DNA of 10,295 nt from an uncultured Gammaproteobacteria bacterium. GTDB lineage: Bacteria; Patescibacteriota; Patescibacteriia; UBA2591; UBA6264. The position numbers and the translations under genes are program-made. Shown piece after piece: positions 3,874-5,279 of this stretch. The DNA lies in assembly GCA_964507075.1 (NCBI GenBank), contig CAZDOL010000015.1, positions 1-10,295 on the forward strand. Direction: 5' to 3'. The notes beneath the pieces were generated by a model. It had not been told where the DNA came from, did no database searches, and saw only the letters and a list, made by a program, of their open reading frames with translations. Each line of letters starts with the position of its first letter. The first letter of the stretch is position 1.

Positions 3874-4797
3874 ATGAATATTATGTTAAAACAAACATTT
3901 CAAGACATTAAATCATTAAAAATTCAAGGAGCAACTGATGTGGCCATTGAAATAATTAAAGTTTTGGCAGATTATAGCGACACCATTAAAACCAAAGAAT
4001 TATCTGTTATGAAGAAAAAGCTTAAAATAGGAGCTGATTTTTTATTATCAGCTCGGCCGACTGAACCAATGGCTCAGAATGGGGTTAAATTTATTTTTTC
4101 CCAATTAAATAAAAGTAGACCCAAAAGTGTGATTCATGCTAAAGATTGTATTCAAAAAGCGAGTAATGATTTTTTAATGGCGATGTTAGATGCCGGTGAT
4201 TTAGTTATTAATCATGGGGAAAAATTAGTTAAAAACAATGATGACATTTTAACCCATTGCCACTCTTGGTTGGTAGAACAAATTTTAATTAAAGCTAAAG
4301 AGAATAAAAAGAAATTTAAGGTTTACAATACTGAGACAAGACCACTTTTTCAAGGAAGAATGACCTCTAAAATATTATTAAAGGCGAATATACCAACAAC
4401 TATGATTGGTGATTCTTCGGCTGGTTTTTTGATTTCTCATTATTCTGGCAGAAATTTGATGATGGATAAAATTATTTTAGGAGCAGATGCTATTTTGTCA
4501 GATGGGTCAGTTATTAATAAAATAGGAAGTTTTTCTATAGGAGTTGTAGGTAAAGAAGAAAAAGTTCCTCTATATATTGCTAGCACTTTATTGAAATTTC
4601 ATAGTAAATCTTGGATTAAAATAGAAAAACGTTCTCCAAAAGAATTGTGGAAAAATGCGCCCAAAGGTTTAAAAATTATTAATTTTGCTTTTGACCTAAT
4701 CCCAGCTAAATATATTGCTGGTATTATTTGCGAAGAGGGGATTGTTAGGCCTCGGGATATAAAAATGGCAGTTAAAAGAAATTATGATTTTTTATGA
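3874..4797 (+). CDS. e2b2: eIF-2B alpha/beta/delta-family sugar-phosphate isomerase, most likely ribose-1,5-bisphosphate isomerase (E2b2 type)
   Basis: Family hallmarks are ILTHCHS (catalytic Cys region), TETRPLFQGR, and ILGADAILSDGSVINKIGS (catalytic Asp in GADA). The 307 aa length is short, like the archaeal R15P isomerases and unlike the ~350 aa MtnA. It sits in the same operon as a RuBisCO large subunit. Confidence 0.8.
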   Translation: MNIMLKQTFQDIKSLKIQGATDVAIEIIKVLADYSDTIKTKELSVMKKKLKIGADFLLSARPTEPMAQNGVKFIFSQLNKSRPKSVIHAKDCIQKASNDFLMAMLDAGDLVINHGEKLVKNNDDILTHCHSWLVEQILIKAKENKKKFKVYNTETRPLFQGRMTSKILLKANIPTTMIGDSSAGFLISHYSGRNLMMDKIILGADAILSDGSVINKIGSFSIGVVGKEEKVPLYIASTLLKFHSKSWIKIEKRSPKELWKNAPKGLKIINFAFDLIPAKYIAGIICEEGIVRPRDIKMAVKRNYDFL

Positions 4798-5279
4798 TTT
4801 TAAATGATAGGGAAAAATTAAAAAAAATCATCCAAAAGGCTCAAAAGCAAGGTAAAAAAGTTTTGATAAAAAAGGGAGTTTTTGATATTATCCATCCCGG
4901 ACATATTTACGCTTTAAGCCAGTTCAAAAAATACGCAGATATCGTTGTAATATTTGTTCAGTCTGATATCCTAACCAGAAAGGAAAAGGGTTATCAAAGG
5001 CCAATCAACAGCCAAAAACACAGGGCAGAAGTATTAGATGGCCTCAAAGACATTGATTATATTTATTTAGATAAATCAAAATCAAGGGAAGAGTGTTTAT
5101 CTCTCTTAGAACACTTGAGACCAAATTTAATTGCTATTATTAGATATGACCAGGAAAAAACAAAAAGATACGATCGTCCTTATTGGGAATTAAAAGAATT
5201 TTTTGATAAAAAAAAGAAAAATTTTTCTACTAGCTTAATTATTAAAAAGATAATTGAAAAATATGAAAGAAAAAAATAG
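4794..5279 (+). CDS. Cytidylyltransferase-fold (HxGH) nucleotidyltransferase, similar to RfaE domain II / HldC / RibL / TagD
   Basis: The nucleotide-binding motif is GVFDIIHPGH. Downstream comes SDILTRKEKGYQRPINSQKHRAEVLDGLKDIDYIY, which follows the pattern (N/S)D..v...KG..RPi....R.evl..l..VD of RfaE-II/RibL-type enzymes. There is also a C-terminal FSTSLIIKKI element (ISST-like). The ATG overlaps the upstream TGA (ATGA at 4794-4797). Confidence 0.7.
   Translation: MILNDREKLKKIIQKAQKQGKKVLIKKGVFDIIHPGHIYALSQFKKYADIVVIFVQSDILTRKEKGYQRPINSQKHRAEVLDGLKDIDYIYLDKSKSREECLSLLEHLRPNLIAIIRYDQEKTKRYDRPYWELKEFFDKKKKNFSTSLIIKKIIEKYERKK

Follow-up and report, generated by a model that had tools for sequence, protein, structure and literature searches.

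Introduction

Gene clusters of the AMP, or pentose-bisphosphate, pathway were reportedly set out by Sato in 2007 and by Aono in 2015. AMP-pathway clusters with RuBisCO occur in bacteria belonging to the candidate phyla radiation (CPR) and in DPANN archaea (Wrighton 2016, PMC5113843; Jaffe 2019, PMC6389311), and the current account of what form III RuBisCO does in these organisms is an AMP salvage route of three enzymes. Here we analyse a stretch of 10,295 nucleotides, the whole of which is called the window below (contig CAZDOL010000015.1 of assembly GCA_964507075.1, forward strand), in which the gene for a small nucleotidyltransferase (NT) stands between e2b2, encoding a putative ribose-1,5-bisphosphate (R15P) isomerase, and rbcL, encoding the large subunit of a form III RuBisCO. 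The locus is like the deoA-rbcL-e2b2 clusters of Thermococcus, CPR and DPANN in that e2b2 and a form III rbcL occur together, here in a CPR host, and it is unlike the AMP or pentose-bisphosphate clusters in that NT is inserted between the two genes and deoA, the gene of the AMP-phosphorylase type, is missing within 6–10 kb.

A preliminary description of the locus, made from the sequence alone, had remarked that no nucleotidyltransferase is known to belong to the described route from AMP to 3-phosphoglycerate (3-PGA), and this is borne out by the literature: a nucleotidyltransferase in CPR RuBisCO clusters is mentioned neither in Wrighton 2016 (PMC5113843) nor in Jaffe 2019 (PMC6389311), and a full-text literature search returned no mention of one. 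The e2b2-NT-rbcL arrangement and the NT subfamily both appear to be undescribed; already known are the PF01467 enzymes and the AMP-pathway clusters of which NT and its operon are variants. We suggest, with a probability of roughly 0.45, that NT activates a phosphate ester other than heptose-1-phosphate and that it is co-expressed with the RuBisCO route without being an obligatory step of it. The gene is a useful lead for which the evidence of a pathway role is mixed, and not a proven new pathway step.

Results

A nucleotidyltransferase gene between e2b2 and rbcL

The genes, junctions and motifs on which the argument turns are these:

3874..4797, + strand: e2b2, eIF-2B-related isomerase, putative ribose-1,5-bisphosphate isomerase (Pfam and NCBIfam)
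4794..5279, + strand: NT gene, 161 aa, stand-alone class-I (HxGH) nucleotidyltransferase, ATG start, TAG stop at 5277-5279
5263..6528, + strand: rbcL, 421-aa large subunit of a form III RuBisCO (523.9 bits on TIGR03326, where the cut-off is 497)
4794..4797, + strand: ATGA start/stop overlap of e2b2 and NT (ATG 4794-4796, e2b2 TGA 4795-4797), which recurs in relatives of the same lineage
5263..5279, + strand: 17-nt overlap of the 3' end of NT with the start of rbcL (rbcL ATG at 5263)
4875..4904, + strand: GVFDIIHPGH, NT residues 28-37, the NTP-binding HxGH signature (sequence and alignment)
4959..5027, + strand: QSD...KG..RPIN....R block, NT residues 56-78 (alignment)
5223..5234, + strand: F144-S145-T146-S147, C-terminal (I/F)STT-type superfamily motif (alignment)

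The 161-aa reading frame, its GVFDIIHPGH motif and its overlaps with the e2b2 stop and the rbcL start are present exactly as first described; the frame is far beyond chance, and public gene calls on the identical contig give it the same coordinates. Public gene callers also choose ATG 5263 for rbcL, for which there is an alternative TTG at 5254. Two ATG starts are possible for e2b2, at 3874 (307 aa, as in our list of open reading frames) and at 3883 (304 aa, as in the public gene calls), and its product scores above the cut-off of TIGR00524 and below that of TIGR00511.

NT passed the gathering cut-off of Pfam PF01467 comfortably (49.1 bits against 21, E = 8.4e-13). Among the NCBIfam models rfaE_dom_II matches best (E = 2.4e-23, 82.6 bits), and the next matches are to generic cytidylyltransferase-related models and, weakly, to TagD, archaeal PPAT and RibF. 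The AlphaFold model of NT (mean predicted local distance difference test score 88.7, predicted template modelling score 0.80) has a Rossmann-like alpha/beta fold, as the Foldseek matches also indicate. Its top match in the PDB is HldC of B. pseudomallei (E = 7e-9, TM 0.68), with T. volcanium 3glv, ECT, CCT and TagD among the further ones, all of the top matches being members of the superfamily; a PDB search by sequence alone gave the same order, again with HldC best (E = 8e-9). The family assignment of the preliminary description thus stands, with RfaE-II/HldC nearest, followed by RibL-like proteins and by TagD, CCT and ECT.

Alignment of 30 members revealed an extensive set of invariant residues (K26, K27, V29, F30, D31, H34, P35, H37, Q56, T61, K65, P70, N72, R77, D88, D93, S97, L105, P110, W131 and S145). 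They include H34, P35 and H37 of the HxGH motif, which reads H34-P-G-H37, and S145 of the C-terminal motif, in which T146 is at least 90% conserved. Among members of the lineage to which the window belongs, dN/dS of NT is 0.06–0.15, which indicates purifying selection. As predicted from these motifs and from the modelled structure, the gene encodes a functional single-domain class-I nucleotidyltransferase with a Rossmann-like fold, the HxGH signature and a C-terminal motif of the FSTS/STT type.

The subfamily to which NT belongs is compact. Searched by a word index, a set of 5.8 billion proteins yielded 81 clusters of homologues at 50% identity or more (E from 1e-97 to 1e-30), beyond which there is a sharp drop to RibL-like proteins at 33–35% identity. 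When 1.84 billion representatives (clustered at 50% identity) were searched exhaustively with a profile, only eight had E of 1e-30 or below, and under these lies a continuum from 1e-25 to 1e-18 made up of RfaE-II-like proteins of ~160 aa and of genuine HldC domains that are fused to HldA, GmhB or KdsB. The named members of the subfamily are from Patescibacteria, Dojkabacteria and metagenome-assembled genomes (MAGs) labelled 'archaeon'; the public cluster names of the homologues gave no functional hint. Thus defined, the subfamily comprises ~80 clusters, has turned up in Patescibacteria (CPR) and DPANN-type archaea alone, and retains 50–58% identity between bacteria and archaea. In a neighbour-joining tree with 100 bootstraps it is monophyletic (80%), its nearest sisters being the homologues numbered P0093-95 and P0112. 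Judged by sequence, the superfamily is known but the subfamily to which NT belongs is new, and HldC/RfaE-II is its nearest characterised relative.

Some of the distant relatives are fusion proteins. P0098 joins a CDP-alcohol phosphatidyltransferase to two nucleotidyltransferase domains and GT2, and among P0107 and P0097/P0099/P0101 one has two nucleotidyltransferase domains with HIT, others being tandem two-domain proteins that recall ECT.

Comparison with HldC, RibL, TagD and other relatives

HldC acts on an anomeric sugar-1-phosphate, which the HAD phosphatase GmhB produces from a sugar bisphosphate. Like HldC, NT is ~160 aa long and stand-alone, and the two have in common GxFDxxHxGH, SD, KG..RPxN....R, VD(Y/W)V and the C-terminal STT. 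Five predicted heptose-phosphate substrate motifs of HldC have been defined (PMC7993394), and KG is the only one of them that the NT subfamily has kept. NSD has become QSD, a conservative change, TNG has become KKG, ExTP has been replaced by DKSxSREE with a three-residue insertion, and KGG (in KGGDY) by AIx. The K26-K27 pair of the KKG motif, ahead of the HxGH signature, is invariant and specific to the family, where HldC has T-N. The comparison points to a nucleotide-binding half that is HldC-like and to a predicted acceptor pocket that is not, having been remodelled.

Membership of HldC proper was rejected: three of the five substrate motifs are lost, and the 82.6 bits of NT compare with an equivalog cut-off of 181.5 for TIGR02199, on which the true HldC domains of the fusion proteins score 160–198 bits. 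The hosts of NT, unlike those of HldC, are without lipopolysaccharide, and no GmhA, HldA or GmhB was found near NT in ~35 contexts. In one of these (locus L013) NT adjoins a HAD protein, for which the closest models are those of PpaX/PGP and not GmhB.

RibL, the archaeal FAD synthase, is similar in size (~150 aa), lies in the same branch of PF01467, has the same HPGH motif within GxFDxxHPGH and likewise occurs in archaea. A RibL profile hidden Markov model (HMM) was rebuilt from proteins retrieved with a sequence taken as that of M. jannaschii MJ1179; this query is 96–97% identical to proteins of Methanocaldococcus that carry the name FAD synthase or FAD synthetase. On this profile the NT subfamily scores 40–69 bits (about 54), as against 143–262 for RibL members; reciprocally, on the HMM of the NT family RibL scores ~53 bits and the RfaE-II-like group ~85. 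Where RibL has PIIPEEQR the NT subfamily has RPINxQxQR, and it lacks both LGxDQ and the conserved pair of Cys residues that is a signature of RibL (PMC11423594). On these low reciprocal scores and missing signatures, identity with RibL was rejected.

TagD, CCT and ECT (1coz, 3hl4 and 3elb) share with NT the fold, the HxGH motif, a C-terminal motif of the STT type and, in the central block, the conserved Arg and Asp. Identity with TagD, for which the reference sequence was verified against PDB 1coz, was nevertheless rejected: NT scores 24.7 bits on TIGR01518 against a cut-off of 165.4, and RTEGISTT and (M/H)GDD(W) are absent. NMNAT and PPAT were also discarded as identities, there being no match to NadD, NadM or NadR and only 25 bits on the archaeal PPAT model.

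The e2b2-NT-rbcL operon in one lineage

About 60 loci (L numbers), mostly with retrieved flanks of 6–10 kb, were gathered from GTDB species genomes, JGI metagenomes and exact-protein look-ups and screened with the proteins of the window. The order e2b2-NT-rbcL was found in all ~14 distinct contexts in which NT is at least 65% identical to that of the window and the contig is long enough, one of them in the single-cell genome GCA_000405165.1. Loci of this operon lineage also share Fmt, ThyX and a divergent conserved unknown gene (unk147) upstream, and have diverged to ~60% identity in e2b2 and ~70% in rbcL; neighbourhood screens and tblastn found no deoA within the 6–10 kb around them. At 50–62% identity, none of ~20 distinct contexts (Dojkabacteria, CPR bacteria using genetic code 25, and DPANN archaea) has e2b2 or rbcL adjacent to NT. 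The idea, raised in the preliminary description, that the gene recurs beside RuBisCO therefore holds for the operon lineage and fails in the more distant contexts. Because the recurrence is confined to a single lineage that shares the Fmt-ThyX-unk147 synteny, e2b2-NT-rbcL is one vertically inherited arrangement and represents roughly one evolutionary event.

The two junctions of NT differ in how widely they are kept. At the 5' end the start and stop codons are joined in ATGA with no spacer, so coupling to e2b2 is reasonable to infer, and NT is probably coupled translationally by reinitiation at this site. At the 3' end the overlap with rbcL is limited to the window and its closest relatives, and the gene calls of L016 show a 15-nt gap instead. 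It had been claimed that NT is co-translated with both neighbours in fixed stoichiometry; coupling to e2b2 is indeed probable, but fixed stoichiometry is unsupported because the NT/rbcL overlap is not conserved. A terminator scan found no terminator-like site between e2b2, NT and rbcL, and we infer that the three are co-transcribed in the window.

NT is not retained wherever the operon is. In L011 (JAQTOB010000002.1, 174-600, from Patescibacteria MAG STA_78) NT, flanked as usual by e2b2 and rbcL, has become a pseudogene; it has at least five lesions, namely a 37-nt deletion near the 5' end, a CAA->TAA change at the invariant Q56, a CAG->TAG change and two 1-nt deletions. Its rbcL (628-1893), 60 nt downstream of the NT remnant, is intact, with 421 codons and 76% identity to that of the window. 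This copy of NT is therefore not needed for the RuBisCO module to persist. At another locus, L030 (Ga0265594_1002837; 420-1000), NT is intact and rbcL carries a 20-nt deletion relative to L027, with a frameshift after about residue 105; the deletion may be a real (population) variant or an assembly variant or artefact.

Two departures from the common motifs were seen within NT itself. In a sub-branch of the operon lineage (proteins P0010, P0012 and P0017; loci L002 and L030) Gly takes the place of the near-invariant D58, giving QSG for QSD, and L020 has HLGH in place of HPGH.

More distant neighbourhoods

In NAD salvage, a PF01467 nucleotidyltransferase is paired with a NUDIX hydrolase, as in NadM-Nudix. 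Similarly, NT orthologues adjoin or overlap a NUDIX gene in three or four lineages. In Dojkabacteria the NT gene and the NUDIX gene downstream of it overlap, and an ADP-forming acetyl-CoA synthetase comes next; at the locus of the sister protein P0093 (sister clade, L058) a NUDIX gene again follows; and on several DPANN contigs an RppH-like NUDIX gene lies directly upstream of NT or nearby. Between the bacterial cases and the archaeal ones the gene order is reversed, and the NUDIX proteins are of two different subfamilies. The likeness to NadM-Nudix has its limits, as NT has no detectable similarity to NadM, NadD or NadR, the window contains no NUDIX gene, and the NUDIX partners of the orthologues resemble YfcD/IDI or RppH, not ADP-ribose pyrophosphatases.

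Elsewhere the company of NT is varied. In the code-25 CPR bacteria it stands after thymidylate kinase (Tmk) and ahead of ftsA-ftsZ, or else comes after a HAD gene; other neighbours are a HAD protein with an HD hydrolase, a HIT protein, and TrxB with a PNPOx-like protein (L032-34), and in the archaeal L062 the gene lies inside a large NDP-sugar/glycan cluster. The use of code 25 is apparent from nine loci (L008, L036-L040, L043, L047 and L052), in which ~20% of the sequence is coding under code 11 and 84–91% under code 25 (UGA = Gly). This points to a host of the Gracilibacteria/Absconditabacteria type; the gene order on these contigs is tmk-NT-ftsA-ftsZ.

Discussion

Enzymes with the class-I nucleotidyltransferase fold catalyse the reaction NTP + X-phosphate <-> NMP-phospho-X + pyrophosphate (PPi). 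In the reading that we favour, NT would use ATP, or possibly CTP, to activate a phosphate monoester that is not heptose-1-phosphate; because this is the known reaction of the fold, the products would be PPi and an NDP-linked sugar, polyol or similar compound. In other lineages, the NUDIX hydrolase encoded beside NT probably trims or recycles the resulting pool of NDP-X. [quoted passage not shown]

A number of observations weigh against this reading. Below the node of the family, placement in the neighbour-joining tree has bootstrap values under 20%, and a second copy of NT elsewhere in the genome could explain the pseudogene of L011. The ATGA junction has been kept even where e2b2 has diverged to ~60% identity. 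Outside the operon lineage, rbcL lies 6 kb upstream of NT in L018, and in L059 e2b2 followed by a gene of the AMP-phosphorylase type (deoA) begins 8.5 kb downstream on the same strand. There (L059:18458-20480) the e2b2 homologue is 35% identical to that of the window, and the gene that immediately follows encodes 503 aa with the domains Glycos_trans_3N, Glycos_transf_3 and PYNP_C; no rbcL was found on the retrieved stretch, which ends inside this gene. Since RuBisCO is sparse in CPR and DPANN (PMC6389311), the two cases are more than would be expected if NT and the AMP pathway were unrelated. Finally, the NUDIX, HIT, HD, HAD and Tmk neighbours are as compatible with nucleotide salvage as with NDP-sugar metabolism.

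Much the same observations can be read in favour of NT as an accessory enzyme of pentose or nucleotide salvage that feeds or drains the R15P/RuBP pool of e2b2 and RuBisCO. The subfamily might then be an unrecognised nucleotide-ribose salvage enzyme of CPR and DPANN, an HldC-like sugar-phosphate nucleotidyltransferase/pyrophosphorylase interconverting an NDP-pentose or a scavenged dinucleotide with NTP and a pentose phosphate. It could cleave the NDP-pentose or dinucleotide at the expense of PPi and so keep the nucleotide as NTP, or it could adenylylate ribose-1-phosphate or R15P, and the NUDIX or HAD partners would carry out the hydrolytic counterpart in other lineages. Besides the proximity of AMP-pathway genes in L018 and L059 and the recurrent NUDIX, HIT, HD, HAD and Tmk neighbours, what speaks for such a role is the embedding of NT in the operon, with its conserved ATGA junction and purifying selection, the lack of a nearby deoA at any locus of the operon lineage, and a spread that is restricted to CPR and DPANN with a cross-domain identity of 50–58%, resembling the patchy and laterally transferred distribution of RuBisCO (PMC6389311). 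The sugar-1-phosphate substrate of HldC, derived as it is from a bisphosphate, would also be an apt precedent. We nevertheless consider it unlikely. Adjacency is seen in one lineage only, AMP-pathway genes are absent within 6–10 kb in the non-operon contexts other than L018 and L059 and hence in most orthologue contexts, and L011 keeps a pseudogene beside an intact rbcL; the described pathway has no known metabolite or reaction of this kind, the adjacent NUDIX proteins are not of the ADP-ribose pyrophosphatase type, and in L062 NT sits in an ordinary glycan cluster. On a rough reckoning, the positive and negative context evidence for a salvage role nearly cancel.

The two remaining alternatives both strike us as quite improbable. 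Parcubacteria reportedly lack ribK, ribL and ribF and yet encode MurB and TrxB (PMC4508563), a gap that NT could fill were it an FMN adenylyltransferase (FAD synthase) of the RibL type, its operon position then being incidental; it is of the same superfamily branch and has the same motif, flavoenzyme genes lie nearby (ThyX two genes upstream in the operon lineage, TrxB and the PNPOx-like gene beside NT in L032-34), and FAD and FMN are possible substrates of the NUDIX and HAD neighbours. The RibL profile scores and the missing signatures argue otherwise, however, ~80 clusters are far too sparse for a general CPR solution, and a pseudogene is tolerated in L011. A cytidylyltransferase like TagD or ECT, making a CDP-alcohol such as CDP-glycerol for envelope polymers and unrelated to RuBisCO, would agree with the sequence and structural matches to ECT, CCT and TagD, with the JGI auto-annotation of some members as glycerol-3-phosphate cytidylyltransferase, with the tandem two-domain relatives and with P0098, whose domain scores best among those outside the family (120 bits) and is fused to a CDP-alcohol phosphatidyltransferase and GT2. 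This is hard to square with the score on TIGR01518 and the absent TagD motifs, with the occurrence of the subfamily in both bacteria and archaea, whose envelopes differ, and with the contexts examined, in which no neighbours of the TagB/TagF type were seen.

If a fourth conserved enzyme did belong to the AMP module, it would be necessary to revise what enters and leaves the pathway in these symbionts, for instance where R15P comes from when deoA is absent or far away. Were the salvage role in particular to prove true, NT would provide an entry to, or an exit from, the shunt of R15P, RuBP and RuBisCO that is independent of AMP phosphorylase, and its logic would parallel the way in which GmhB and HldC act in ADP-heptose synthesis, transferred to ribose 1,5-bisphosphate. 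Even if the link to RuBisCO is incidental, there remains a compact cross-domain subfamily, specific to CPR and DPANN, with a predicted remodelled acceptor pocket and a recurrent NUDIX partner, in hosts whose cofactor and nucleotide-sugar metabolism is largely uncharted. Being small and well folded in prediction, NT is a tractable target for the assignment of a new activity.

Other features of the window

One further gene lies directly 3' of rbcL:

6603..6917, + strand: YerC/YecD TrpR-like helix-turn-helix protein (Pfam and NCBIfam), kept only in the closest relatives (L054-L057)

Promoter and terminator scans of the window gave nothing above shuffled controls, with the exception of one terminator-like hairpin after this gene. 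The YerC-like gene may belong to the same transcription unit as rbcL, because the first hairpin followed by a T-run on the + strand comes only at 6999-7016, 3' of it. The helix-turn-helix protein is a possible regulator of the e2b2-NT-rbcL unit.

On the other side, divergent from e2b2, 3223-3666 on the - strand encodes a 147-aa protein without a family match, which is found in the same position in 17 loci of the operon lineage; its longer homologue in L016 (226 aa) contains a helix-hairpin-helix domain, HHH_8. Further downstream, at 8405-9325, there is a 306-aa open reading frame with a GTG start that has no Pfam or NCBIfam match and occurs only in the closest relatives; it contains the short internal repeat SICDHSICERD. 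Three loci (L001, L002 and L004) are of the Patescibacteria type and come from MAG records titled 'uncultured Gammaproteobacteria bacterium', which is probably a taxonomic mislabel.

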